Below are positions 5,596 to 36,346 of a DNA stretch of 48,117 nt, one piece after another. Below the pieces are notes generated by a model that searched no databases, had not been told where the DNA came from, and saw nothing but the letters and a program-made list of their open reading frames with translations. This DNA is from Chthoniobacteraceae bacterium. Its GTDB lineage: Bacteria > Verrucomicrobiota > Verrucomicrobiia > Chthoniobacterales > Chthoniobacteraceae. The position numbers and the translations under genes were made by a program. Position 1 is the first letter of the stretch, and each line of letters begins with the position of its first letter. Where the stretch lies: assembly GCA_031409655.1 (NCBI GenBank), contig JANNXQ010000213.1:1-48117 (forward strand). Reading direction: 5' to 3'.

Positions 5596-6708
5596 ATATG
5601 AGCGCATGAAGGGCGAATATGTTCGCATTAGTTTTGTATGAGGCACTAAGTTAAGGGATGACTAAGCTAGCTCTTACGGAGTCGGAACTCGAAGACATCG
5701 CCGAAGCATTGGATAGTCCGGAGGTGATGGAGAAGTTCAAGGTCAAGCTGCTGGTCTTGCGCATGCATCACGAAGGAGTCGAGCATGGGATCATCGCTCG
5801 GGCGGTGAGTAAGCATCCCAACACCATTACAAGCTATCTCAAGGAATACGCCGAGGGCGGACTCATCGCCTCACTCGAGGATCGGGCCTATAAGCCGAGC
5901 AGCACTTTGCAGCCTTTCATGACGTGCCTGCGCTGCTCTTTCACGGTGGCGGCGCCTTCCACGGTCAAACACGCCGTCGCGCGCATCGCTGCGCTCACCG
6001 CAATTACGGTCTCCGAAGAGCAAGCGCGGCGCTTGATGAAACGGCTCGGCATGCGCTATCGCAAGAGTGGCTCGATTCCCGGCAAGTCCGATCCGCAGCA
6101 ACAGTTTGATTTTCTTCGCAACGAACTGGAACCGCGGCTCATCGAAGCGGCGCATGGCCGGCGGAAGGTCTTCTTTGTCGATGCGGCGCACTTTGTTCTC
6201 GGCTGCTTTTTGGGAATGATCTGGAGCTTCAAGCGCCTCTTCATCAAGGGCGCCTCTGGCCGGCAACGCTATAACGTCCTTGGCGCTGTGGATAGCCACA
6301 GCAAAGAGGTCATGACGGTGCGCACGACGGACAATATCAATGCACTCACCATCTGCCAACTTCTCGAGATGCTTGCCACGAAGCACTCAGAGATTCCCGT
6401 CACCATTGTCTTGGACAATGCACGCTACCAGCGATGCGAATGCGTCAGAACACGGGCCGCTGAACTCGGCGTGGAGCTTCTCTTCCTCCCCGCCTACTCG
6501 CCCAACCTCAATCTGATTGAAAGACTTTGGAAACTCACGAAAACAAAATGTCTTCGCAATAGATACTATCCCGAGTTCTCGCTCTTCACCTCTGCCATTG
6601 ACTCATTCCTCGACTCGATCAACTCCTCTTATCAAAAGGAACTCGAATCCTTACTTACCCTCAACTTTCAACTCTTCAGCAAATCCTGATTTATGCAGGC
6701 GGGGAGTA
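5556..6708 (+). mobile_element. IS630-family insertion sequence
   Basis: TA at 5556-57 and 6707-08; imperfect terminal IRs TACTGCCCGTCGTCATAATTTGGGA vs revcomp TACTCCCCGCCTGCATAAATCAGGA (18/25 match). Confidence 0.8.
5658..6689 (+). CDS. IS630-family DDE transposase
   Basis: N-terminal HTH; FFVDAAHF, VLDNARYQ, LPAYSPNLNLIERLW motifs. Confidence 0.95.
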   Translation: MTKLALTESELEDIAEALDSPEVMEKFKVKLLVLRMHHEGVEHGIIARAVSKHPNTITSYLKEYAEGGLIASLEDRAYKPSSTLQPFMTCLRCSFTVAAPSTVKHAVARIAALTAITVSEEQARRLMKRLGMRYRKSGSIPGKSDPQQQFDFLRNELEPRLIEAAHGRRKVFFVDAAHFVLGCFLGMIWSFKRLFIKGASGRQRYNVLGAVDSHSKEVMTVRTTDNINALTICQLLEMLATKHSEIPVTIVLDNARYQRCECVRTRAAELGVELLFLPAYSPNLNLIERLWKLTKTKCLRNRYYPEFSLFTSAIDSFLDSINSSYQKELESLLTLNFQLFSKS

Positions 6709-6744
6709 AAGATCAGACCGGGGCAGCACCGGTAGCCGGCTCCA
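6709..6744 (+). pseudogene. 3' remnant of a tRNA (U73 + CCA) adjoining the IS630 end
   Basis: T-arm-like ACCGG-GGCAGCA-CCGGT followed by AGCCGGC-T-CCA; no 5' half found. Confidence 0.5.
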
Positions 6745-6749
6745 CTTCT

Positions 6750-6825
6750 AGCCCTGTAGCTCAATCAGCGGAGCGCCCGGCTTTGAATCGGGAGGTTGAT
6801 GGTGCGAATCCATCCGGGTCCGCCA
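6750..6825 (+). tRNA. tRNA-Gln(UUG), atypical
   Basis: Anticodon arm CCCGG-ctTTGaa-TCGGG; T-loop TGCGAAT; CCA encoded; mismatched acceptor stem. Confidence 0.75.
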
Positions 6826-6856
6826 CTCATCGCCGCGCACAGCGCGCGGCATTCAC

Positions 6857-6931
6857 GCGCCGGTAGATCACTAGCAGATCGCCGCACCGACATTGCGGAG
6901 GCAGGCGGGACAGAACCGCCCCGGCGCACCA
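6857..6931 (+). tRNA. tRNA-Val(GAC), atypical
   Basis: Perfect acceptor GCGCCGG/CCGGCGC, A73, CCA; CCGCA-ccGACat-TGCGG (C33); T-loop GACAGAA. Confidence 0.75.
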
Positions 6932-6941
6932 TTTCCTCAAG

Positions 6942-7017
6942 GCTCCCGTAGCTCAATGTATAGAGCACCGCGCTTCGAACGCGGAGGTTGCAGGCGAAAT
7001 TCCTGCCGGGAGCACCA
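6942..7017 (+). tRNA. tRNA-Arg(UCG), atypical
   Basis: GCTCCCG/CGGGAGC acceptor; CCGCG-ctTCGaa-CGCGG; T-loop CGAAATT; CCA. Confidence 0.85.
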
Positions 7018-7025
7018 CTCATTTT

Positions 7026-7100
7026 CCCGGCGTAGCCCAATGCAGAGGCAACGAGCTCAGACCTCGTCCAGTGCGGGTGCAAGTCCTGCCGCCGGGACCA
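7026..7100 (+). tRNA. tRNA-Leu(CAG), short variable loop
   Basis: CCCGGCG/CGCCGGG; ACGAG-ctCAGac-CTCGT; 5-nt variable loop; T-loop TGCAAGT; A73 + CCA. Confidence 0.85.
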
Positions 7101-7104
7101 TTTC

Positions 7105-7177
7105 GCTCTCGTAGCCCAACAGCAGAGGCAGCGGACTTAAACCCCGCGCAGTGTCGGTGCGAATCCGACCGGGAGCA
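7105..7177 (+). tRNA. tRNA-Leu(UAA), short variable loop
   Basis: GCTCTCG/CGGGAGC; GCGGA-ctTAAac-CCCGC; T-loop TGCGAAT; A73; no encoded CCA. Confidence 0.8.
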
Positions 7178-7186
7178 TTTTTCAAC

Positions 7187-7262
7187 GCCCACGTAGTCCA
7201 ACAGCAGAGACGTCCGCCTCAAAAGCGGAACAGTGCGAGTGCAACTCTCGCCGCGGGCACCA
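7187..7262 (+). tRNA. tRNA-Leu(CAA), short variable loop
   Basis: GCCCACG/CGCGGGC; TCCGC-ctCAAaa-GCGGA; T-loop TGCAACT; A73 + CCA. Confidence 0.85.
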
Positions 7263-7264
7263 AT

Positions 7265-7357
7265 GGAACGTGAACCGGACAAGCGAGCCGGGACTCTTTG
7301 CTAAAGAGATCGTTGCGCATTTCGCGTGATGGGGAGCATGCCCTCCGCGTTCCGCCA
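7265..7357 (+). tRNA. tRNA-Ser(GCU), atypical, long variable arm
   Basis: GGAACGT/GCGTTCC acceptor, G73, CCA; CTCT-ttGCTaa-AGAG; long variable arm; divergent D and T arms. Confidence 0.75.
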
Positions 7358-7368
7358 TTTCATCAAAC

Positions 7369-7444
7369 GCCCGTGAATGCAAAGAGCCGAGCCCCCGGTC
7401 TTTCAAGCCGGACCTAGTGGGTGCGAGTCCCACCACGGGTGCCA
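7369..7444 (+). tRNA. tRNA-Glu(UUC), atypical
   Basis: GCCCGTG/CACGGGT; CCGGT-ctTTCaa-GCCGG; T-loop TGCGAGT; G73 + CCA. Confidence 0.8.
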
Positions 7445-7456
7445 TTTCACAACAAC

Positions 7457-7533
7457 GGTCGCGTAGCCCAACTGGAAGAGGCACGGCGTCGAGAACGCCG
7501 CGAGTGCTGGTTCAAATCCAGCCGCGACTACCA
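7457..7533 (+). tRNA. tRNA-Leu(GAG), short variable loop
   Basis: GGTCGCG/CGCGACT; CGGCG-tcGAGaa-CGCCG (C33); canonical TTCAAAT T-loop and D-loop GG; A73 + CCA. Confidence 0.85.
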
Positions 7534-7537
7534 TTTA

Positions 7538-7609
7538 GAACCCGAAGCTTTGATAGCGAAGCCGCCGCCTTTTAAGCGGCTCAGGAGGGTGCAAGTCCCT
7601 ACGGGTTTA
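7538..7609 (+). tRNA. tRNA-Lys(UUU), atypical
   Basis: GAACCCG/CGGGTTT; GCCGC-ctTTTaa-GCGGC; T-loop TGCAAGT; A73; no CCA. Confidence 0.75.
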
Positions 7610-7617
7610 TTTCCTTT

Positions 7618-7844
7618 CCGCCGGGTTCGCCATCGCAGCCGCACGGCATCGCCGCACGCGGTTCTGCACATCGGCTCACCGGCGGCTCACCAGGTAATCG
7701 GCCTAAAAACCGAGATTGGGTTCAAGTCCCACAAAACCGATCCACGGCGGTGACCCGCGCGCAAGCGCACTCGCGACGCAGCCTGCGCAGCCAACCGAAA
7801 GGTCACACTGCCCGCTGCCGAACGGTGGCCGCCGCCGTGGATCG
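7618..7844 (+). ncRNA. Unclassified structured RNA following the tRNA array
   Basis: Long irregular hairpin 7618-7685; tRNA-like T-arm TGGG-TTCAAGT-CCCA near 7717-7731; perfect 13-bp stem 7738-7750/7832-7844 closing several small hairpins, two with GNRA loops. Confidence 0.5.
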
Positions 7845-7873
7845 CATCTTTCAACCAACAACCAACCAACACC

Positions 7874-8671
7874 ATGACCACCGAACAGATCCTCATTCTC
7901 ATCCTCGCGGTCGCCGGCTTCGTCGTGGCGAACTTTGTCCGCGCCCGCTACCGCCACGAGTTCATCGTGAACGAAGGCTTCGCGGGCCTGCTCTACCATG
8001 AGGGTAAGCTCATCGAATCACTCGCCGCGGGCCGCCACGTCCGCTGGGGTAAGAACTTCCGCGTCGCGCTCGTCGATACGCGCAAGACGCTGCTCCAGGT
8101 CGCCGGCCAGGGAGTGCTCAGCGCCGATAACGTCGGCGTAAAGCTCAGCATCGTGCTCACCGCGCAGATCGTTGATGCCGCGAAGAGCGTGCAGGCCGCG
8201 GACAACCACGCGGCGCACATCTACAGCGCAACGCAGACGGCCGTCCGCACCGTCGTCGCCGGTGTCACGATGGAAGCGCTGCTCACCCAGCGCGTCGCCA
8301 TCGGCGCGCAGCTCGGCGAACTCATCGCGCCGCAGGCCGAAGCCGTCGGCGTGCAAGTTCATGCGGTCGAGGTGCGCGACGTGATGCTGCCAGGCGAACT
8401 GCGCAAGGCCTTCAGCGAAGTGCTCAAGGCCAAGCAGGAAGGCCAGGCCGCGCTCGAACGCGCCCGCGGTGAATCTGCCGCGCTGCGCAACCTCGCGAAC
8501 GCGGCGCGCCTCATCGAAGGCCAACCGGCGCTCGCGACACTCCGCTTCCTGCAAACGCTCGAAGCGTCCAATGCGGGCCAGACGTTCGTGATGAACGACC
8601 TCTCGGCCCTGCTCCCGTCGCTCAGCTCGCGTGGCGCCAGGCCGTCCACGCCTGAGCCGGGAGAAACGTAA
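7874..8671 (+). CDS. SPFH/band-7 (slipin-like) protein
   Basis: N-terminal TM helix; LSADNVGVKLS, EVRDVMLPGELR, ALERARGESAALRNLANAAR. Confidence 0.9.
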   Translation: MTTEQILILILAVAGFVVANFVRARYRHEFIVNEGFAGLLYHEGKLIESLAAGRHVRWGKNFRVALVDTRKTLLQVAGQGVLSADNVGVKLSIVLTAQIVDAAKSVQAADNHAAHIYSATQTAVRTVVAGVTMEALLTQRVAIGAQLGELIAPQAEAVGVQVHAVEVRDVMLPGELRKAFSEVLKAKQEGQAALERARGESAALRNLANAARLIEGQPALATLRFLQTLEASNAGQTFVMNDLSALLPSLSSRGARPSTPEPGET

Positions 8672-8698
8672 ACCAAAGCTGTGAGGGGGAAACACAAA

Positions 8699-8728
8699 GC
8701 CCCGGCGGGGATTCGTCTCCGCCGGGGT
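8699..8728 (+). terminator. GC-rich hairpin (UUCG loop) after the SPFH gene
   Basis: GCCCCGGCGGGGA-TTCG-TCTCCGCCGGGGT; weak U-tract. Confidence 0.45.
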
Positions 8729-9070
8729 GATTCTCCTCCCACCAAACACCTACACCCATGCCCATCCCAAGCATCCTGGGTCAGGGCGTATTCCTCATCT
8801 GGTTTCTCCTCGTCGCCTTCGCGCGCCCGGGATCTCAAAGACGCTCAGCAATTCAGCATCGATGTTCCGAACGCGACGCCGTCGCGCCGGAACATCGCGC
8901 AAGAATCCCGCTGGATCGGTTGCCTGACAGCGCTTCGCTGGCGGGCGTGCCGCTGCGGATTCTGCTCAGCGACCGTCCCGGTCCCGGAGCCCTGCTGAGA
9001 GATACGCTCATGATCCGTCCATCCACACGCGATCCGTAATCAATCCACCAACATAGAAAGGAGGTTCCCC

Positions 9071-9937
9071 ATGCACGGGAACGAAGTCTTCCAGCGCGTC
9101 CGCCACGCGCTCGCTCAGGTCGAAGCCGAGCGAAACGTGCGCGTGCTTTTCGCGTGCGAGAGCGGCAGCCGCGCGTGGGGTTTTGCCTCGCGCGACAGCG
9201 ACTACGACGTGCGCTTTCTCTACGTCCACCGGCGCGACTGGTATCTCTCGGTCGAGGACCGGCGCGACGTCATCGAACAGCCCATCGCCGACGATCTCGA
9301 CGTGAGCGGCTGGGAACTCCGCAAGGTGCTGCGACTGCTCCGCAAGAGCAACCCGCCGCTGCTCGAATGGCTGAAGTCGCCGGTCGTGTATCGTCACGAT
9401 CCGGCCTTCGCCGCCGAGTTCGGCGCGCTGGCGACGGAGTTCTATTCGCCGCGGCGCTGCTTTGCGCACTACCTGCACATGGCCTTCGGCAACTGGCGCG
9501 ATTACCTGCGCGGTCGCGAGGAAGTGAGCCTGAAGAAGTATCTCTACGTCTTCCGACCGCTGCTCGCGTGCCGCTGGATCGAGCGCCAACTCGGCCAGGT
9601 GCCGATGCTCTTCGCGCAACTCGTGGAGAGCGTGCTCGACGAAGCCGACGTGCGCGCCGCGCTCGCGGAACTCGTCGCGCGCAAGCAGGCCGGCGAAGAA
9701 CTCGCCGTCGCGCCGCCGGTCGAAGTGCTCACGCGATTCATCGAGGCCGAACTGCCAAGGCTCGAAGCGCTCAACGAGCCTGACGATGCCGCGGGCGAAG
9801 TGGAGGAGCTGAACGGCTTCCTCCGCGCTACGCGCTCGCGGCTTGAGAGGAGGAGGAGCTTCGTCGGGGTGTGGAATGCGTCGCAAGCGGGACGAGGCGT
9901 CCAACGATCAGAATGGCGATTGGAGAAGCGAACTTGA
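9071..9937 (+). CDS. RlaP/YcgL-like Pol-beta nucleotidyltransferase
   Basis: ESGSRAWGFAS.DSDYDVRF, DVSGWELRK, SNPPLLEWL.SP, LKKYLY; SD GAAAGGAGG; C-terminus probably extended by a 1-nt frameshift (alternative frame ends YALAA* at TGA 9844-46). Confidence 0.9.
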   Translation: MHGNEVFQRVRHALAQVEAERNVRVLFACESGSRAWGFASRDSDYDVRFLYVHRRDWYLSVEDRRDVIEQPIADDLDVSGWELRKVLRLLRKSNPPLLEWLKSPVVYRHDPAFAAEFGALATEFYSPRRCFAHYLHMAFGNWRDYLRGREEVSLKKYLYVFRPLLACRWIERQLGQVPMLFAQLVESVLDEADVRAALAELVARKQAGEELAVAPPVEVLTRFIEAELPRLEALNEPDDAAGEVEELNGFLRATRSRLERRRSFVGVWNASQAGRGVQRSEWRLEKRT

Positions 9938-11105
9938 GCGAATTGGGAACGGCAGCTATTTGGGAAGTCGGGGCGCGTCGAACCGCTTCGTTTATCAACT
10001 CATGGCCACCGATGATTTCATCCTCCGTGCCGCTGAATACGGCGGGTGCGCAACTCCTTCCCAATGGGATGTTGCGCAACAAGCTAGGGCTAACCACATT
10101 GAGAAGCTGTTTGACAAACTGACCGAATATTATCTGCGCTCGGTAGTTCCTCCCGAAGCCATCCATTGGGTTGATTCGCTAAAACTCGACTGGATCAACG
10201 ATGAAAGTGTCAATGCGCTTGCAATGTTTTCTGGCCGGAAATGTCGCATTGCATTCTTTTCCGGCATTGTAGGGAGACTATGGGACGCTTTCGTGGCGGT
10301 AGCCGCTCATCCGTTGCACCTCAAATCCGTGCCAGGCGCAATACCTCCGAAAGAAATTTTCCGCCTCAATCTTTCACAAATGGTGCCTAAAATCATCCGC
10401 CGCGGCGCCGATGATACAACTAGAGCGACTCTTGATAGTTTCGCCAGCTTGGCCTCAAGACGCATCGATATCGTCACAGATCTTTATCGTGTTAGCGTCG
10501 AATTCTTGTTGATGCACGAAATTCATCACTTCTGGGGGGGGCATCTCTTTTATTCACAAGCACTTCGCAAACGAGGCCTGACACAAGCGGAGAGCACATC
10601 TTGGCCTCCCTTGGAGCCGCTTCTTCATCAAGCCTTTGAATGGCAGGCTGACTACCTCGCGGTGAAACGACTAGTCGAAGCTTATGCGCTTATGGAGATC
10701 GATCGGGAAGTCTTTCTCACCAATTGGATAACCGCACTGGCGGTTCTGTTTTTACTCTTTCACCCATCTCCCACCGATTTCAAAGACCATGAAGCCAGTT
10801 TCTACCTGCATCCTCACGTCCGCTTTCTTGAGATAATTACCTCCTTGTGCGTCCATGTCCAAGCGGCATTCGACTTTTCGGATGAAAAATTCGATGCCAT
10901 TCTTTCCCAGGCCTTCGCCGAGGTGGCGTTAATCGATGTTTCTGGCAAAAATGACGTTCTCGGACCGTTCTATTTCGCATTTCAGAACTCGGCCATTGGT
11001 CAGCAGAGATCCGCGGTCGTTCGGGAACGACTTCGCGAAGCGCTTCCTCTGTTGGAGGAATCAAGACTTCAAATGCTGGTCTTTTTAGCCGCTGAAAACA
11101 CTTAG
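9843..11105 (+). CDS. HExxH zinc peptidase, Lit/peptidase U49-like (start uncertain)
   Basis: FLLMHEIHHFWGGH, E.QAD..A, HP.VRF motifs; visibly lower GC than the flanks. Confidence 0.6.
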   Translation: MRGGGASSGCGMRRKRDEASNDQNGDWRSELERIGNGSYLGSRGASNRFVYQLMATDDFILRAAEYGGCATPSQWDVAQQARANHIEKLFDKLTEYYLRSVVPPEAIHWVDSLKLDWINDESVNALAMFSGRKCRIAFFSGIVGRLWDAFVAVAAHPLHLKSVPGAIPPKEIFRLNLSQMVPKIIRRGADDTTRATLDSFASLASRRIDIVTDLYRVSVEFLLMHEIHHFWGGHLFYSQALRKRGLTQAESTSWPPLEPLLHQAFEWQADYLAVKRLVEAYALMEIDREVFLTNWITALAVLFLLFHPSPTDFKDHEASFYLHPHVRFLEIITSLCVHVQAAFDFSDEKFDAILSQAFAEVALIDVSGKNDVLGPFYFAFQNSAIGQQRSAVVRERLREALPLLEESRLQMLVFLAAENT

Positions 11106-11566
11106 GTGTCGCTCAGAGCGAGCGGCTTGCCTGTCTTCGGGTCTATCAGGTTCTGACTCACGCAATAGGCAGCGACACTTATTTTGGCGATACTCACGAT
11201 AAGGAGTTTCACAAAAGGCGCTAGAATCGCCGCCTCGATGCCGAGTGTCTTACCGAACGCTGATATTAAACCCGTCAATAAAATCGTTTCAAAAACGGCG
11301 TTTGCGTTCCGAGCCTTTTCTCGAATATCGGCATATTTCGGCTCATCAGTGCATACGAACAGCCGAAACTCCAGTTTGAGTTGGTTCCAGTAACGAGGCA
11401 GAGTCGCAAAATGTGCATCCGGGTGAACCCGCCTCGCGAGTTCTTCGCCCGCAATCTCTACATCTCTACTCGCTGCGGCCCATAACACTCGATCCGACAT
11501 CAACTCGTTCGTCAGCATTGGCTCCGCGCTTACAAATAGTATGTCGAGCGACCTCTGATGTGGCAT
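11102..11566 (-). CDS. Hypothetical protein with hydrophobic C-terminal helices
   Basis: 154-aa lower-GC ORF convergent with the peptidase; YW..LK.EF..F.C.D..KY motif. Confidence 0.55.
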   Translation of the reverse strand: MPHQRSLDILFVSAEPMLTNELMSDRVLWAAASRDVEIAGEELARRVHPDAHFATLPRYWNQLKLEFRLFVCTDEPKYADIREKARNANAVFETILLTGLISAFGKTLGIEAAILAPFVKLLIVSIAKISVAAYCVSQNLIDPKTGKPLALSDT

Positions 11567-11848
11567 GCAGCAAGTTATACTGCTCTACCGCTCCGCAATC
11601 AACCGCGATATCGAGGGCCGGGCCGGTCCACGGCCTGGCCTAGGCGGAGGCACCACGCTATTTGATGGAGGCAGATTCTTCCGAACGGAATCACCAAACG
11701 AAATGCTAAGCCCTCATCGCCCTCGACCCGACGGCGGCGCGCTGGGGCTGGCAGGTCCGCTTCCGCAATGCGGAGGTGTATGCGCGCGCGGCAATGTGCG
11801 TCATCGCGACCACGCGACGATCCGCTGCAGTAGTGGCACCGCGTCTGA

Positions 11849-11902
11849 ATGAACACCGAAACTGCGACGCCCGCTACGGCGAACGTCGCATTCCTCGATT
11901 GA
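11849..11902 (+). other. Candidate leader peptide MNTETATPATANVAFLD upstream of rtcB
   Basis: 17-codon uORF within two hairpins, ending 13 nt before a strong terminator-like stem; no clear SD. Confidence 0.35.
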
Positions 11903-11915
11903 GGAAAGACACAAC

Positions 11916-11958
11916 GCAGCCGGGGAGGGTGACAAGCCTTCCCCGGCTGTATTCTTTC
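11916..11958 (+). terminator. Terminator/attenuator-like hairpin upstream of rtcB
   Basis: GCAGCCGGGGAGGG-loop-CCTTCCCCGGCTGT followed by ATTCTTTC. Confidence 0.55.
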
Positions 11959-12038
11959 GACAAAAAAAGAACAAACACCGCTGCGCACTCGGAGTGTGTC
12001 CGCACGCTGCGCCCATCATTTACAACCGAACCAAAACC

Positions 12039-13517
12039 ATGAACACCAAAGACCTCATCCGCCTCGGCGTGCCTGTCGGCGAGCCGATCGAGCTCGCGCA
12101 CGAGTTCATCCAGAACTTCATCGCGGAGGGGAAGGACGGCGCGTTGCTTGAGGCCGAGATTTTCAACATCGTCGCCAACCCTCCGGAGTTCTTCGCCGAT
12201 GAACTGCGCGCGCCGCTGGCTCGCGCGATCTATCGCCCGGCGTTCACGCCGCGCGCGGAATTGCCGCTCCGGCGGCTATGCGGTGACCGTTCCGCGGTTG
12301 GGAGGAAGGCGCTGCCGCGCAGAGCGTTCGCGCCGTGGCGCCAGTGGGGCGAGGGGCTCGAAGCCGAGGCGGTGAAGCAGATGGCCAATGCGTGTGCGCT
12401 GCCGGTCGCGGTCGCGGGCGCGCTCATGCCGGATGCGCACGTCGGCTACGGCCTGCCGATCGGCGGCGTGCTCGCGACGGATAACGCGGTGATTCCTTAC
12501 GCCGTGGGCGTGGACATCGCGTGCCGCATGAAGTTGACCGTCTATGATCGCAAGGCGAACACCCTCGCCGGCCAGCGCGACCGCCTCGCGAACCTCATCG
12601 AGAGCGAGACGCGCTTCGGCATGGGCTGCGAGTTCAAGCAGCGCCGCGAACACGACGTGATGGACGAAGATTGGAGCGTTTCGCCGGTGACGAACCGGCT
12701 GCGCGACAAGGCTTGGTCGCAGCTCGGCACGAGCGGAAGCGGCAACCACTTCGTCGAGTTCGGTGCGTTCACCGCAGATGCGGAGCAGGCGCAGGCGCTT
12801 GGCCTTTCTCACGAAGGACCGGGCGAATACCTCGCGCTGCTCACGCACTCGGGTTCGCGCGGAACCGGTGCGCAGGTGTGCGACTACTACAGCAAGCGCG
12901 CGATGGCTCGCCACGAGCACTTGCCGAAGGAACTCAAACACCTCGCGTGGCTCTCGCTCGACGACGCCGATGGCCAGGAATACTGGGCCGCGATGAACTT
13001 GATGGGCCGCTACGCCGCGGCGAATCACGCGCTCACCCACAAGCACATCGGCAAGAAGCTCGGTGCGCACGTGATCCTCGACATCGAGAACCATCACAAC
13101 TTCGCGTGGAAAGAAACGCACGTCGTGAATGGTGAAGAGCGCGAGGTCATCGTGCATCGCAAGGGCGCAACGCCTGCGGGCGCCGGCGTGCTCGGGGTCA
13201 TCCCAGGCTCGATGGCGTCTCCGGGCTACGTCGTGCGCGGCAAGGGTTCGCCCGAGTCCCTCACCAGCGCGTCGCACGGCGCAGGCCGCGTGATGAGCCG
13301 CACCAAGGCGATGCAGTCGTTCACCTGGAGCGCGACCAAGAAGCTGCTCGCGGAGCGCGGCGTCGAGCTGCTCTCCGCGGGTCTCGATGAAGTGCCGGGC
13401 GTCTATAAGGACATCCACGCTGTCATGGCCGCGCAGACCGATCTGGTCGAACTCCTCGGCCAGTTCGACCCGAAGCTCGTGAAGATGTGCCCAGCCGGCG
13501 ACCGCGCCGAAGACTGA
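12039..13517 (+). CDS. rtcB: RtcB RNA-splicing/repair ligase
   Basis: MPDAHVGYGLPIGG, VGVDIAC, QLGTSGSGNHF, HSGSRG, HHNFAW, HRKGAT, SASHGAGR, DEVPGVYKDI. Confidence 0.97.
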   Translation: MNTKDLIRLGVPVGEPIELAHEFIQNFIAEGKDGALLEAEIFNIVANPPEFFADELRAPLARAIYRPAFTPRAELPLRRLCGDRSAVGRKALPRRAFAPWRQWGEGLEAEAVKQMANACALPVAVAGALMPDAHVGYGLPIGGVLATDNAVIPYAVGVDIACRMKLTVYDRKANTLAGQRDRLANLIESETRFGMGCEFKQRREHDVMDEDWSVSPVTNRLRDKAWSQLGTSGSGNHFVEFGAFTADAEQAQALGLSHEGPGEYLALLTHSGSRGTGAQVCDYYSKRAMARHEHLPKELKHLAWLSLDDADGQEYWAAMNLMGRYAAANHALTHKHIGKKLGAHVILDIENHHNFAWKETHVVNGEEREVIVHRKGATPAGAGVLGVIPGSMASPGYVVRGKGSPESLTSASHGAGRVMSRTKAMQSFTWSATKKLLAERGVELLSAGLDEVPGVYKDIHAVMAAQTDLVELLGQFDPKLVKMCPAGDRAED

Positions 13518-13580: not shown

Positions 13581-14162
13581 ATGAACGACATCCTCAACAA
13601 ATCGACCGTGCTGGTGCTGAACCGGCACTGGCAGGCGATCCACGTGAAGACGCCCGCAGAGGCGTTCTGCATGATCGCCACCGGCGCCGCCACCGCGCTC
13701 GACGTGCAGGGCGACGACTACATCACGCCCGTGCGCTGGGACGACTGGCTCAAGCTGCCCGTCCGCGAGCACGACAACGCCGTGAACACCCCACGCGGTC
13801 CCGTGCGCGTGCCCACCGTCATCGTCGCCGCCAACTACGCCAAGGTTCCGCTGCGCCGCCCGCGCTTCGGCGCCCGCGGCATCTGGGAGCGCGACGGCGG
13901 CATCTGCCAATACACCGGCCGCAAGCTCGCGCCGAAGGACGGCAACATCGACCACGTCGTTCCGCGCTCCCGCGGTGGCAAAACGTCCTGGGACAACTGC
14001 GTCCTCGCCCACCGCGAAGTGAACTCGCGCAAAGCCAACCGCCTGCCCCACGAAGCCGGTCTGCGCCTGCGCAAGCAACCAGTCGCGCCGCGCGTGGTGC
14101 CAGCCAGCGTGTTGATCCGCAATCACCACGGCGTCCCCGACTGGCAGCATTTCCTCGGTTAG
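13581..14162 (+). CDS. HNH endonuclease
   Basis: VLVLN, RDGGICQYTG, IDHVVPRSRGG.TSWDNCV, N.RKANR.P.EAG. Confidence 0.93.
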   Translation: MNDILNKSTVLVLNRHWQAIHVKTPAEAFCMIATGAATALDVQGDDYITPVRWDDWLKLPVREHDNAVNTPRGPVRVPTVIVAANYAKVPLRRPRFGARGIWERDGGICQYTGRKLAPKDGNIDHVVPRSRGGKTSWDNCVLAHREVNSRKANRLPHEAGLRLRKQPVAPRVVPASVLIRNHHGVPDWQHFLG

Positions 14163-34538: not shown

Positions 34539-35147
34539 TCACCTCTCGATCTCTTTCGTGAAAAAGTCTGACAGCTTTTCCAACGTGCGAGCAAACGACG
34601 GTATTGAAGAAGCCTCGGCGAAGCTAAAAGCTGCGGTCAGCCTCGGTTGGTGATTCGGCTCGTTGTATGGAACTCCCATGCGGGCTGCCAACCAAGCCTT
34701 GGCATCCCTCGAGGATTCGGGATCGGCTGGTGGCTCGATGTCGGCCGGCAAATTGCAGACTCCCTGGAGCGAATGGGCCGCAGCCAAAAACCAAGTTTCG
34801 TATTCTCGATAAGCAAGGGTAACGAGGATGGCGGTATCTGGCCGGCAACTGATCGCTCGCTGGAGAATAGCTGGTCCAACGACAGCGGGACAATCGTCTT
34901 CACAGTCCAAAAGAATCCAGACACATGACTTCGACCACGGCTTAACCTTACGAGCCGCCAATTCCACATGCTTCTGAAAATAGTCTTCATCACGGAGAAA
35001 CGAGCCCGACTTTATCCGCAACGGCGGATTGATCTTCAATTCGAGCGCCGGCGCATATTCGGCAGCGATCCGTCGCAGCAGGATGGGCACGGCCTGAACC
35101 TCTCCATGCCCCTCCACTATCGGAGCAACAAAGGCGACCCCGCTCAT
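34539..35147 (-). CDS. DUF4276-like (TOPRIM-fold) protein
   Basis: IVEGHGE..AVP.LLRR, LLDCEDDCP, EYETWFLA, SIPSF; coupled to the ATPase. Confidence 0.8.
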   Translation of the reverse strand: MSGVAFVAPIVEGHGEVQAVPILLRRIAAEYAPALELKINPPLRIKSGSFLRDEDYFQKHVELAARKVKPWSKSCVWILLDCEDDCPAVVGPAILQRAISCRPDTAILVTLAYREYETWFLAAAHSLQGVCNLPADIEPPADPESSRDAKAWLAARMGVPYNEPNHQPRLTAAFSFAEASSIPSFARTLEKLSDFFTKEIER

Positions 35148-36346
35148 GCGCCGAGTTCAAACAGTTTGAGTTGACGCTCGTCTTGAATCTCTTTGAACGA
35201 CTCCGATGAAGGCGACAACTGGTTCTGCCGAAGCAATTCGCCCGGGGTAAAAAGGCGATCACGCAACACGGATCGACCGGCGTCATCGACTGGCCCAATG
35301 ACGGTTACTCCATCACGGCTCTCAACCGCGAGGATGGAACCATCCGGGATGTTGGAGTCATCGAGCAGATCCGGGCTGTGACTAGTGACGACCACCTGAG
35401 AACTCGTGCTTGCCTCCTGGAGCGCCCCGAGCAGCACACCGGTCGCGGCAGGGTGCAGTGCGACTTCAGGTTCTTCCAAGCCGACGAACTGTGGAGCTTC
35501 GCCATTTCGTCCACGTCCTTGGAACAGTGCGAGCAACACTCCGAACGCCCGCAGCGTTCCATCGGACATACTGGAAGCCAAAAACCGCCACGCATGCTGC
35601 TGCCCTTTGACTCCCTGTCGAAACTCCAGTGTCTCCTGAGATCCCAAAACTTTGGGTTCCACTCCAGACACACCAGGAACAATTCGACCCAGATAGGAAG
35701 CGATTTCCTCGCGGGTCGATTCCGGCAGACGGGAGAAAACGCTCGCGCTGTTCCAGCCTTCGCGGGCGAGCAAATCTCCCGCGTCTGGTTTCTGCATTGC
35801 CGCGATTTCGCGCGGGTTCAGGTTGTAGAAACTCATTCGGGAAAGCGCGTCATAGACTGGTCTGAACTCAGGCAGGCCCGCCGCCGCTACGAGAAAAAGC
35901 CGGTCAGGGACGGCTGGAGGAAGAACCTCGGCGGATGACTTCAACACCGTCCCTCCGCGGACGTGAAAATGCGCCTCTTTCATGCTATTCCCAGCGAACG
36001 AAAGGCTGCACTCCTCGTTTTGAACTTCAAAGCCACCGGAGGGCTTGGCTCCGATGCGGAACGAGTAGTGTCCGATAGCGCCATTCAACAGTGTGAAGTC
36101 TAGGCGGATAGCGAAGTGATTGGGATGTCCTCCGCTTCTCCTCCGAACCTCCTTGATGGTGCCGCGATCACGCAACGCGTGATCGAGCGTCGTACTCAGC
36201 GCGTCGGAGACGAATCGCAACGCATCGAGAAAATTGCTTTTTCCTGAACCATTGGGGCCAACCAAAAACGTGAGCGCCTTCAAATCCACACGACAACTCG
36301 CAATGCTCTTGTAGTTGCGAAGCGTGACTGTGGAGATCAGGGGCAT
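35144..36346 (-). CDS. AAA_15/AAA_21 ABC-type ATPase
   Basis: GPNGSGKSN Walker A, MSDGTLR signature, LEEPE.ALHP, TSHSP. Confidence 0.92.
   Translation of the reverse strand: MPLISTVTLRNYKSIASCRVDLKALTFLVGPNGSGKSNFLDALRFVSDALSTTLDHALRDRGTIKEVRRRSGGHPNHFAIRLDFTLLNGAIGHYSFRIGAKPSGGFEVQNEECSLSFAGNSMKEAHFHVRGGTVLKSSAEVLPPAVPDRLFLVAAAGLPEFRPVYDALSRMSFYNLNPREIAAMQKPDAGDLLAREGWNSASVFSRLPESTREEIASYLGRIVPGVSGVEPKVLGSQETLEFRQGVKGQQHAWRFLASSMSDGTLRAFGVLLALFQGRGRNGEAPQFVGLEEPEVALHPAATGVLLGALQEASTSSQVVVTSHSPDLLDDSNIPDGSILAVESRDGVTVIGPVDDAGRSVLRDRLFTPGELLRQNQLSPSSESFKEIQDERQLKLFELGA

Follow-up and report, generated by a model that had tools for sequence, protein, structure and literature searches.

Probable leucine tRNA genes without a long variable arm in the remnant of a tRNA array beside RNA-repair genes

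Between positions 7,026 and 7,533 of contig JANNXQ010000213.1, from the Chthoniobacteraceae assembly GCA_031409655.1, lie four tRNA genes that have leucine anticodons and lack the long variable arm of a bacterial tRNA-Leu, and the question they raise is whether such tRNAs still mean leucine and what a bacterium would use them for. The window analysed here is that whole contig of 48,117 nucleotides (nt), designated C213, in a 6.85-Mb assembly of 306 contigs (G000); other genomes, contigs and loci are given by G, C and L numbers where they must be told apart. We consider it quite probable that the four genes are leucine-accepting reserve tRNAs of a mobile array that acts together with the RNA ligase RtcB and the nucleotidyltransferase RlaP on damage to tRNA or translation.

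The four genes, each called by ARAGORN and matched by Rfam, are the following.

7026-7100, plus strand: short-arm tRNA-Leu(CAG), 75 nt
7105-7177, plus strand: short-arm tRNA-Leu(UAA), 73 nt
7187-7262, plus strand: short-arm tRNA-Leu(CAA), 76 nt
7457-7533, plus strand: short-arm tRNA-Leu(GAG), 77 nt

Their scores against Rfam RF00005 (46.1 bits for CAG, 46.1 for UAA, 48.9 for CAA and 53.1 for GAG; E 9e-7 to 1e-8) all exceed the gathering score of 29 bits. In the ARAGORN drawings and in our own parse each gene has an acceptor stem of 7 bp, a D-stem of 3 bp, a D-loop of 9-11 nt, a variable loop of 5 nt and A73, and the shape given in the preliminary description of this locus (four leucine isoacceptors with a 5-nt variable loop, a 3-bp D-stem, a large D-loop and A73) is confirmed by ARAGORN, Rfam and the parse alike. 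A length of 73-77 nt leaves no room for a long class II arm, and the refolding that the same description had named as the way to reveal a conventional one produced none in any of the four genes; when folded without constraints, three of them form a cloverleaf whose variable region is 5 nt long and unpaired, and Leu(CAG) takes an alternative fold. The description had the genes right, and it missed the longer tRNA array to which they belong, the repair genes beside it and the non-canonical elbow of three of the four.

CCA is encoded by Leu(CAG), Leu(CAA) and Leu(GAG) and not by Leu(UAA). Leu(CAG) has the D-loop CAAUGCAGA, without GG, the variable loop CCAGU, the T-loop UGCAAGU (G55) and A37; its acceptor begins with C1-G72 instead of G1-C72, and the same acceptor sequence is found in 7 of 11 aligned cag genes. 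Leu(UAA) and Leu(CAA) share the D-loop CAACAGCAGA and have the variable loops GCAGU and ACAGU and the T-loops UGCGAAU and UGCAACU, both with G55. Leu(GAG) has the D-loop CAACUGGAAGA, with GG, the variable loop CGAGU and the canonical T-loop UUCAAAU, together with C33 and A37, and its G1-U72 pair is also present in several other Leu(GAG) genes and many viral family members. All four pair at 19-20 of 20 stem positions, the mismatches being an acceptor A-C in Leu(CAA) and one in the anticodon stem of Leu(UAA). Conventional host tRNA-Leu genes of 82-86 nt (CAA, CAG, GAG, UAA and UAG) lie on other contigs, and with this normal long-arm set elsewhere in the assembly the short genes therefore duplicate four of the five host isoacceptors.

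Whether the cloverleaf is under selection was judged from an alignment of 31 short Leu genes, orthologues and paralogues of this array lineage. Standard pairs fill 98.0% of the cells of the 20 cloverleaf pairs; with the 3' partners slid the figure is only 32-43%. In 17 of the 20 pairs both sides have changed (137 cells). Not one of 500 shuffles attains any of five measures. Because the genes are kin, the shuffle test makes the result look more significant than it is, but the sliding controls and the diversity of pair types point in the same direction. On this alignment the four Leu genes are shown to be genuine, with a cloverleaf kept by selection through compensatory changes.

The amino acid that the body of these tRNAs specifies was approached with a D-arm pattern that holds no anticodon information, searched in two collections, one of genomes and one of viral contigs, with the matches classified by ARAGORN; the frequencies are those of samples. 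The genomes gave at least 120 loci and at least 116 pattern tRNAs of 73-78 nt, with Leu anticodons in 114 of 116 among the matches listed (taa 59, caa 23, tag 19, cag 8, gag 5). The viral contigs gave at least 126 loci and at least 116 pattern tRNAs of 73-79 nt, 110 of 116 among the matches listed having Leu anticodons, and both collections together give 224 of 232, again among the matches listed. A73 is present in all 114 genome Leu matches listed, as is a D-loop ending in AGA, with A14-A15 in 113, GG in 113 and U48 in 110; a few viral matches listed have an apparent U73, where ARAGORN set the 5' end one base early. By this comparison the short-arm body is shown to be widespread in bacterial genomes and viral contigs and to go, as ARAGORN classifies it, almost exclusively with Leu anticodons. 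These anticodons span both leucine codon boxes and almost nothing else, a pattern to be expected of a body that specifies leucine, with an anticodon free to vary inside the Leu set, and not of one that specifies another amino acid.

The window genes agree with this. All four combine a Leu anticodon with the discriminator A73. C13-A14-A15 is present in each, as is a U at the last position of the variable loop (the Levitt pair A15-U48), in columns that are invariant across the 31 aligned genes. Their D-arm is built like that of the host's true tRNA-Leu: the Leu-type D-arm pattern, which was composed after the genes had been seen, occurs in 6 of the 56 tRNAs of the assembly, namely two host Leu and the four array Leu, and in no other isotype. 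No identity elements of another amino acid were seen in the four genes, G3:U70 included; the assembly has one bacterial-type leucyl-tRNA synthetase (LeuRS), with its C-terminal domain, and no extra synthetase occurs among the 37 window open reading frames (ORFs) scanned. Of the two options offered in the preliminary description, the minimal, class I-shaped leucine tRNA thus gains support from A73, A14-A15, U48, the Leu-like D-arm and a body that goes almost only with Leu anticodons. In a tally of class II isotypes over 16 array loci, 40 of 41 Leu genes are short, and Ser genes are long in 9 of 10 cases and Tyr genes in 5 of 5.

The published work cited here is drawn on for the passages that were covered. 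In E. coli the determinants of LeuRS are A73, A15-U48, G18G19 and A20a, and the long arm is uncorrelated with leucylation (PMC9976931). Minimalist E. coli tRNA-Leu and human mitochondrial tRNA-Leu(UUR) are alike to the window genes in that LeuRS charges them without an arm, through A73, A14 and the core of D- and T-loop (Giege and Eriani 2023, PMC9976931); they differ in being engineered or organellar and not natural bacterial or phage genes, and the minimalist constructs lose activity when the D/T-loop interactions are disrupted (PMC9976931). The set of G18G19/A20a, G18:U55, G19:C56 and U54:A58 is complete only in Leu(GAG); the other three keep G19, C56, U54, A58 and the AGA end of the D-loop but encode G55, and their position 18 is A or U. 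Leucine charging is predicted most securely for Leu(GAG), which has the canonical elbow, and less securely for the three G55 genes.

This altered elbow, in which the T-loop begins UGC and not UUC and the D-loop has a single G in place of GG, with Leu(GAG) canonical, is not confined to leucine. A census of 145 ARAGORN calls from the relatives' loci and C213, with a few flanking housekeeping genes included, gave the T-loop starts TGC (81), AGC (24), CGC (7), GGC (6) and TTC (23), so that about 80% of the lineage's array tRNAs examined encode G55 in place of U55; in the assembly outside C213 the T-loop starts with TTC in 50 of 52 ARAGORN-called tRNAs. G55 is coupled with loss of GG, which is present in 23 of 23 U55 tRNAs and absent from 105 of 120 G55 tRNAs (Fisher p ~7e-17, kinship uncorrected). 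The G that survives in the Leu alignment is that of position 19, position 18 being A, U or a gap, and G19, C56 and A58 are invariant in the 31 genes, with U at position 54 in all but one. With G19 and C56 invariant and 18 and 55 changed, the outer G19-C56 platform would therefore be kept and the G18:U55 contact replaced. Leu(GAG) orthologues are found in both elbow states, and a 137-kb viral contig with a 44-tRNA array carries 31 UUC and 11 UGC genes, every UGC gene having AG and not GG. In the broad samples G55 is rare, at 2 of 136 genome-locus tRNAs (both in verrucomicrobial metagenome-assembled genomes) and 5 of 205 viral-locus tRNAs among the matches listed.

Two further observations concern elbows outside the short-arm genes. 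Phage tRNA-Leu genes of 82-84 nt (L275 15171-15252, and in L264 and L274) keep the extra arm and have the G55 elbow with AG in the D-loop; elbow change and arm loss would therefore be independent events. The tRNA-Arg(UCG) at 6942-7014 has the T-loop CGAAAUU (C54, G55, A56) and the D-loop AAUGUAUA, with CGAGAUU and CGAGAGU in its G023 orthologues, and by eye U19 with A56 could stand in place of the G19-C56 elbow pair.

Pseudouridine 55 has been described as universally conserved (PMC4810234, PMC7912444). A review of non-canonical tRNAs contains no occurrence of G55, U55 or phage, and our search for natural G55 elbows, which did not cover subscription journals, returned nothing but a tRNA-Pyl paper that has G55; in the literature searched there appears to be no description of an entire array lineage that has lost G18 and U55 together. 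The tymovirus tRNA-like structure (Rfam RF00233) has the T-loop consensus UGCAACU, which is the G55-type loop of Leu(CAA), and its D/T-loop association is described as nearly identical to that of tRNA (elbow review, PMC4810234 or PMC7912444). It differs in being a pseudoknotted mimic in the 3' untranslated region of a plant RNA virus, and is non-homologous, the match reaching 18.5 bits against a 40-bit threshold. An element with the same loop forms a tRNA-like elbow, and a G55 loop is therefore compatible with an L-shape; we suggest that G55-C56-R57-A58 could form a GNRA-like turn that replaces the U-turn at 55.

The anticodon loops deviate as well. A37 is found in 19 of the 20 CUN-reading short Leu genes of the lineage, and the three host CUN Leu genes have G37. 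C33 occurs in 9 of the same 20 genes; when all isotypes are counted it is present in 20 of 145 array calls, compared with 1 of 52 tRNAs in the rest of the assembly. It has been proposed that phage tRNAs evade tRNA-targeting defences through changes in the anticodon loop (2023, PMC10264068). We put forward tentatively, as a proposal that is open to considerable doubt, that a lineage of mobile tRNA arrays, present in verrucomicrobial and planctomycete-type genomes and in certain phages, has rebuilt the elbow, with G55 in place of U55 (the site of the most conserved tRNA modification), no G18 and G19-C56 kept, and altered its anticodon loops. If these tRNAs take part in translation, they would be a parallel pool that functions without pseudouridine 55.

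The four genes are part of a longer run of tRNA genes, which is preceded by a transposase gene and followed by the genes for RNA repair.

5658-6689, plus strand: DDE-type transposase (Pfam DDE_3 9.6e-23, rve, HTH_33), single copy in the assembly
6750-6825, plus strand: tRNA-Gln(UUG), by ARAGORN, Rfam 49.9 bits, T-loop UGCGAAU (G55)
6942-7014, plus strand: tRNA-Arg(UCG), Rfam 64.8 bits, not called by ARAGORN on the plus strand, T-loop CGAAAUU
7369-7441, plus strand: weak tRNA-like gene in the gap from Leu(CAA) to Leu(GAG), scoring 30.5 bits with Rfam when its own genome was searched
7538-7609, plus strand: tRNA-Lys(UUU), by ARAGORN at a lowered threshold, T-loop UGCAAGU (G55)
7874-8671, plus strand: SPFH/Band-7 protein (Pfam Band_7 8.3e-30)
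9071-9937, plus strand: RlaP nucleotidyltransferase, RNA-ligase-associated Pol-beta family (PF10127 3.8e-92; phrog_14344 2.2e-75)
9843-11988, no strand: variable spacer of lower GC from RlaP to RtcB (GC 0.528 for 10001-12000)
11994-13517, plus strand: RtcB RNA ligase (Pfam PF01139 7.5e-85)
13581-14162, plus strand: HNH endonuclease (Pfam HNH_4 3e-10)

The anticodon of tRNA-Arg(UCG) was read off the Rfam alignment, and its orthologues are called Arg(tcg) in L014, L016 and L017. The intact array of a relative, G028, aligns with the window at 6715-7607 only, that is from just past the transposase; alignment with an intact array starts at about 6715, right after that gene, and the 5' two-thirds of the array are therefore missing here. 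In the regions fetched from relatives ARAGORN finds about 15-23 tRNA genes per array, with most amino acids covered. Several of these arrays end as in the window, with Leu(cag)-Leu(taa)-Leu(caa)-Leu(gag)-Lys, and an orthologous Lys(ttt) directly follows Leu(gag) in L013, L014, L015, L016, L018 and L019; the window Leu genes are 89-91% identical to those of intact arrays. By these alignments the run in the window is the 3' remnant of an accessory tRNA array of about 20 genes, of the kind called L-array or tRNA array unit.

A tRNA array unit has been defined as at least 20 tRNA genes at a density of at least 2 per kb (Tran et al. 2016, PMC4758250). The window holds seven firm tRNA genes and one weak one in 6750-7609, which reaches that density and falls short of that number. 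The G028 array (L013) has 23 ARAGORN calls in 6695-10264 and those of L016 and L019 about 22 each; the orthologous arrays come under the definition elsewhere, and the window therefore holds a truncated copy of a qualifying array. L-arrays are known as horizontally spreading sets in several phyla, Planctomycetes included, often linked to an HNH endonuclease and rtcB (Santamaria-Gomez et al. 2021, PMC8421152). The window set is supernumerary, since Leu CAA, CAG, GAG and UAA, Gln UUG and Lys UUU are also encoded on other host contigs. Its distribution is patchy, as fits horizontal transfer, being uneven within the family, with a related array of 44 tRNAs on the 137-kb viral contig, and both HNH and rtcB adjoin the array here and in relatives.

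When 61 genomes, G000 among them, were searched at the DNA level, 24 had a match at E<=1e-3; the other 60 genomes searched are relatives. Within the family the array is matched in 15 of 36 further genomes, with identities reaching 91%, and within the genus in 1 of 3. The neighbouring genes were compared by tblastn of the window proteins against 14 fetched relatives' loci. RtcB homologues of 73-86% identity lie beside the array in L013, L015, L020, L023, L024 and L026, with a divergent one in L016 and one cut by the contig end in L018; full-length RlaP homologues (67-95% identity) are present in 6 of the 14 loci, HNH homologues (69-95%) in 9 of the 14, and SPFH homologues beside the array in L014, L015 and L023. 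From these matches the array with its repair genes is shown to recur across genera.

RtcB and the PF10127 nucleotidyltransferase are neighbours on the same strand, about 2 kb apart, in the manner of an RtcB-RlaP repair operon. RlaP extends damaged RNA 3' ends by one or two nucleotides and assists in restoring repaired tRNA, and the RtcB operons of E. coli and Pseudomonas include the cyclase RtcA and the activator RtcR (preprint 10.64898/2025.12.29.696909). Neither RtcA nor RtcR was matched among the 37 window ORFs scanned, ORFs of less than 80 amino acids and the rest of the genome not having been searched, and PADLOC assigns no families to SPFH, RlaP and RtcB. The HNH endonuclease at 13581-14162 is likely a homing or mobility gene of the array. 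No convincing terminal inverted repeats that would mark the insertion-sequence boundaries of the DDE transposase were found. A scan of 6500-8000 for terminators gave two terminator-like sites on the minus strand, which is the level of shuffled sequence. A second RlaP-RtcB-HNH module with 87-95% protein identity is present on the short contig C77, where it begins inside RlaP at the contig end, and the 4.8-kb contig C210 has one more array-type tRNA, a G55-type tRNA-Cys(GCA); both may be pieces of another copy of the array that was broken in assembly.

Several observations were made in passing on the array and the contig. The weak element at 7369-7441 has by eye the anticodon loop CUUUCAA (UUC, Glu-like), G73, an encoded CCA and an aberrant D-arm, and in an alignment with G028, G026 and G017 it is kept in four genomes with compensatory changes in the anticodon and T stems. 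Its slot is filled in G023 and G033 by a tRNA-Ile(UAU), calls of which in arrays and phage are 89-91 nt long (L016 9490-9580, L017 9352-9440, L019 1734-1824, L275 10776-10865), with about 20 extra nt after the anticodon arm that may be a long variable arm or an insertion. At the array end on the viral contig G061 (L275 18624-18946), three ARAGORN calls have non-triplet anticodons ('tc', 'aatg', 'aatg'), which could be unusual loops or miscalls. The spacer ORFs at 9843 and 11102 have no tblastn match in relatives and no Pfam family; that at 11102-11566 (minus strand) matches the candidate phage-defence family PDC-M35B (PADLOC, 1.4e-16), and the 420-amino-acid ORF at 9843-11105 has neither a Pfam nor a PADLOC family. 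Further along, an AAA ATPase at 35144-36346 (minus strand), adjoined by a same-strand ORF at 34539-35147, matches the candidate defence family HEC-01A very strongly (1.1e-155). A phage island was considered for the locus and rejected: the contig holds planctomycete-type PSD/PSCyt and DUF1552 genes and ordinary metabolic genes, and PHROGs matches are limited to the repair genes, HNH and a few generic genes.

Among known systems, the L-array on plasmid delta of Anabaena/Nostoc sp. PCC 7120 is alike in being a supernumerary, horizontally spread array with a linked HNH gene and a functional link to rtcB. It is induced jointly with rtcB when translation is impaired by translation inhibitors, and 23 of the 26 tRNAs of its trn operon are charged in vivo; tRNAs of the operon also occur in polysome fractions (PMC8421152). 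It is alike, too, in its short-arm Leu: by ARAGORN the operon has four tRNA-Leu of 75-78 nt with A73 and the D-loop CAAUUGGCAGA (AAAUUGGUAAA in the gag gene), and its Ser(GCU), of 90 nt, and Tyr, of 87 nt, keep long arms. With four short Leu among 26 operon genes and 23 of the 26 charged, at least one short Leu is therefore charged; the supplement lists gene-specific probes for Leu(UAG) and Leu(UAA) (PMC8421152). The differences are that the Anabaena elbows are canonical, with a UUC T-loop in 24 of 25 ARAGORN-called operon tRNAs, that rtcB is elsewhere in that genome, with no linked RlaP or SPFH, and that the window array is truncated and chromosomal, in a planctomycete-type genome. A blastn search of the Leu block against plasmids matched two records, blastn being too insensitive for tRNAs.

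The mycobacterial tRNA clusters or array units (PMC6582537, PMC12803027, PMC4758250) are likewise horizontally acquired, with an embedded HNH gene, and redundant with chromosomal tRNAs, and have been viewed as a putative antidefence system whose function has yet to be settled (Yano et al. 2026, PMC12803027). A cluster-encoded tRNA-Leu(TAG) with a short variable loop is mentioned in one sentence of that literature (Behra et al. 2019, PMC6582537), for this single isoacceptor and with no identity analysis in the passages covered, which mention neither RtcB/RlaP nor an altered elbow. We found no fuller account of short-arm bacterial or phage Leu than that sentence in the literature searched, subscription journals not being covered. 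In phages, Bacillus phage P59 and Streptomyces phage Tomas have annotated tRNA-Leu genes of 75-77 nt with the same D-arm, a short variable loop and A73, and in Tomas a nucleotidyltransferase gene adjoins the tRNAs; Corynebacterium phages Lederberg, StAB and Adelaide have annotated tRNA-Leu genes of 78-80% identity to Leu(GAG), known by match and annotation only. Unlike the window genes, those of P59 and Tomas have canonical UUC/GG elbows, and phage tRNA clusters are carried in virions and not in a chromosomal island with RtcB.

If the four genes are leucine-accepting reserve tRNAs, the host's single LeuRS would charge them with leucine, and the long arm would have been lost as a part that bacterial LeuRS can do without. 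On the model of the trn operon of Anabaena, the array would be a normally quiet reserve set for a damaged translation apparatus or housekeeping tRNA pool, and would work jointly with tRNA repair by RtcB and RlaP. The deviant anticodon loops (A37, C33) and the G55, no-G18 elbows may in addition make these tRNAs poor targets for nucleases of housekeeping tRNAs.

A number of points weigh against this. The main weakness is that recognition by LeuRS of Leu(CAG), Leu(UAA) and Leu(CAA) is uncertain because they have neither G18G19 nor U55; in E. coli the G18:U55 and G19:C56 contacts are important for leucylation (PMC9976931), and unless the LeuRS of this host puts up with the changed elbow, it may charge the three G55 tRNAs poorly. 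Whole-sequence similarity, taken with the variable region and anticodon removed, does not single out Leu: identities of 0.64-0.75 are shared by a wide range of host isotypes, and for the four genes the closest host Leu comes 1st, 2nd, 3rd and 9th of 50. The acid gels of the Anabaena work show charging and not which amino acid, and the text covered does not name the three undetected tRNAs (PMC8421152). A37 in the CUN readers and C33 in Leu(GAG) could impair decoding. It should also be considered that a scan of 6500-8000 gave no sigma-70-like promoter site, by a consensus that may not apply to the host phylum, and the copies here may be poorly expressed because the 5' part of the array is lost and such a promoter was not found.

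Departures of this kind from features thought important for LeuRS and for maintenance of the reading frame (the G55, no-G18 elbow, A37 and C33), together with the tight linkage to RtcB and RlaP, would also fit tRNAs whose main use is not decoding. They would draw off tRNA-targeting nucleases, as decoys or sponges, or would be substrates or signals of RtcB/RlaP repair. Both a sponge role and non-canonical functions are brought up by the authors of the Anabaena study (PMC8421152). We regard a main role outside decoding as improbable: conservation extends to the acceptor stem, A73, the CCA that three of the genes encode, the anticodon stems and the precise set of Leu anticodons, all of which would be needless for a mere decoy, and the tRNAs of the Anabaena operon are charged and occur in polysome fractions (PMC8421152).

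Somewhat less probable still is that the genes are a silent relic at this locus, a fragment cut from its promoter by the transposase, of a family functional elsewhere. Similarity to intact arrays does begin at about 6715, right after the transposase, with no promoter-like site at 6500-8000; Leu(CAA) has its one acceptor mismatch and Leu(UAA) its one anticodon-stem mismatch; and the second RlaP-RtcB-HNH copy on C77 could belong to another array. However, the genes are 89-91% identical to those of intact arrays and paired at 19-20 of 20 stem positions, the promoter scan used the sigma-70 consensus only, which may not suit the host phylum, and read-through from the transposase gene is possible.

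Deliberate-mistranslation tRNAs put one amino acid's anticodon on another's body, often with a dedicated synthetase. The second option of the preliminary description, that the Leu anticodons are charged with another amino acid in a regulated or stress-linked mistranslation of Leu codons, is very unlikely: the class I shape is atypical for bacterial Leu and the Phe and Ile tRNAs of the Anabaena operon have aberrant acid-gel mobility (PMC8421152), but all anticodons here are Leu, the body keeps the Leu determinants and has neither G3:U70 nor a long arm with G73 nor any other foreign identity element, such a body carries all six Leu anticodons over two codon boxes (224 of 232 among the matches listed), the 37 window ORFs scanned include no added or dedicated synthetase, a single LeuRS is encoded in the assembly, and Anabaena showed no mistranslation at the codon tested (PMC8421152).

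The missing arm is no curiosity: Leu lacks it regularly in mobile and phage tRNA sets, as noted once in print. Loss of the arm follows the rules of the synthetases: Leu can lose it, and Ser and Tyr, whose synthetases need a long arm, cannot. The short-arm Leu genes are thus predicted to be natural minimal LeuRS substrates, and a short-arm rule, once stated, would make for better annotation of tRNAs, and better calls of their isotype, in arrays and phages. A spare tRNA set linked to RtcB and RlaP also supports the idea that arrays and tRNA repair act jointly against tRNA damage. The G55 elbow outweighs the missing arm in importance, in that about 80% of the array tRNAs examined lack U55 and yet are under structural selection, and the G55 arrays offer a natural test of the need for the G18:U55 contact and for pseudouridine 55. 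If our proposals are true, LeuRS would accept a substrate without either the long arm or the G18:U55 contact, and these bacteria and phages would hold a tRNA pool that is structurally distinct from the housekeeping one, possibly invisible to nucleases and modification enzymes that read the T-loop, and serviced by a co-inherited RlaP-RtcB pair.

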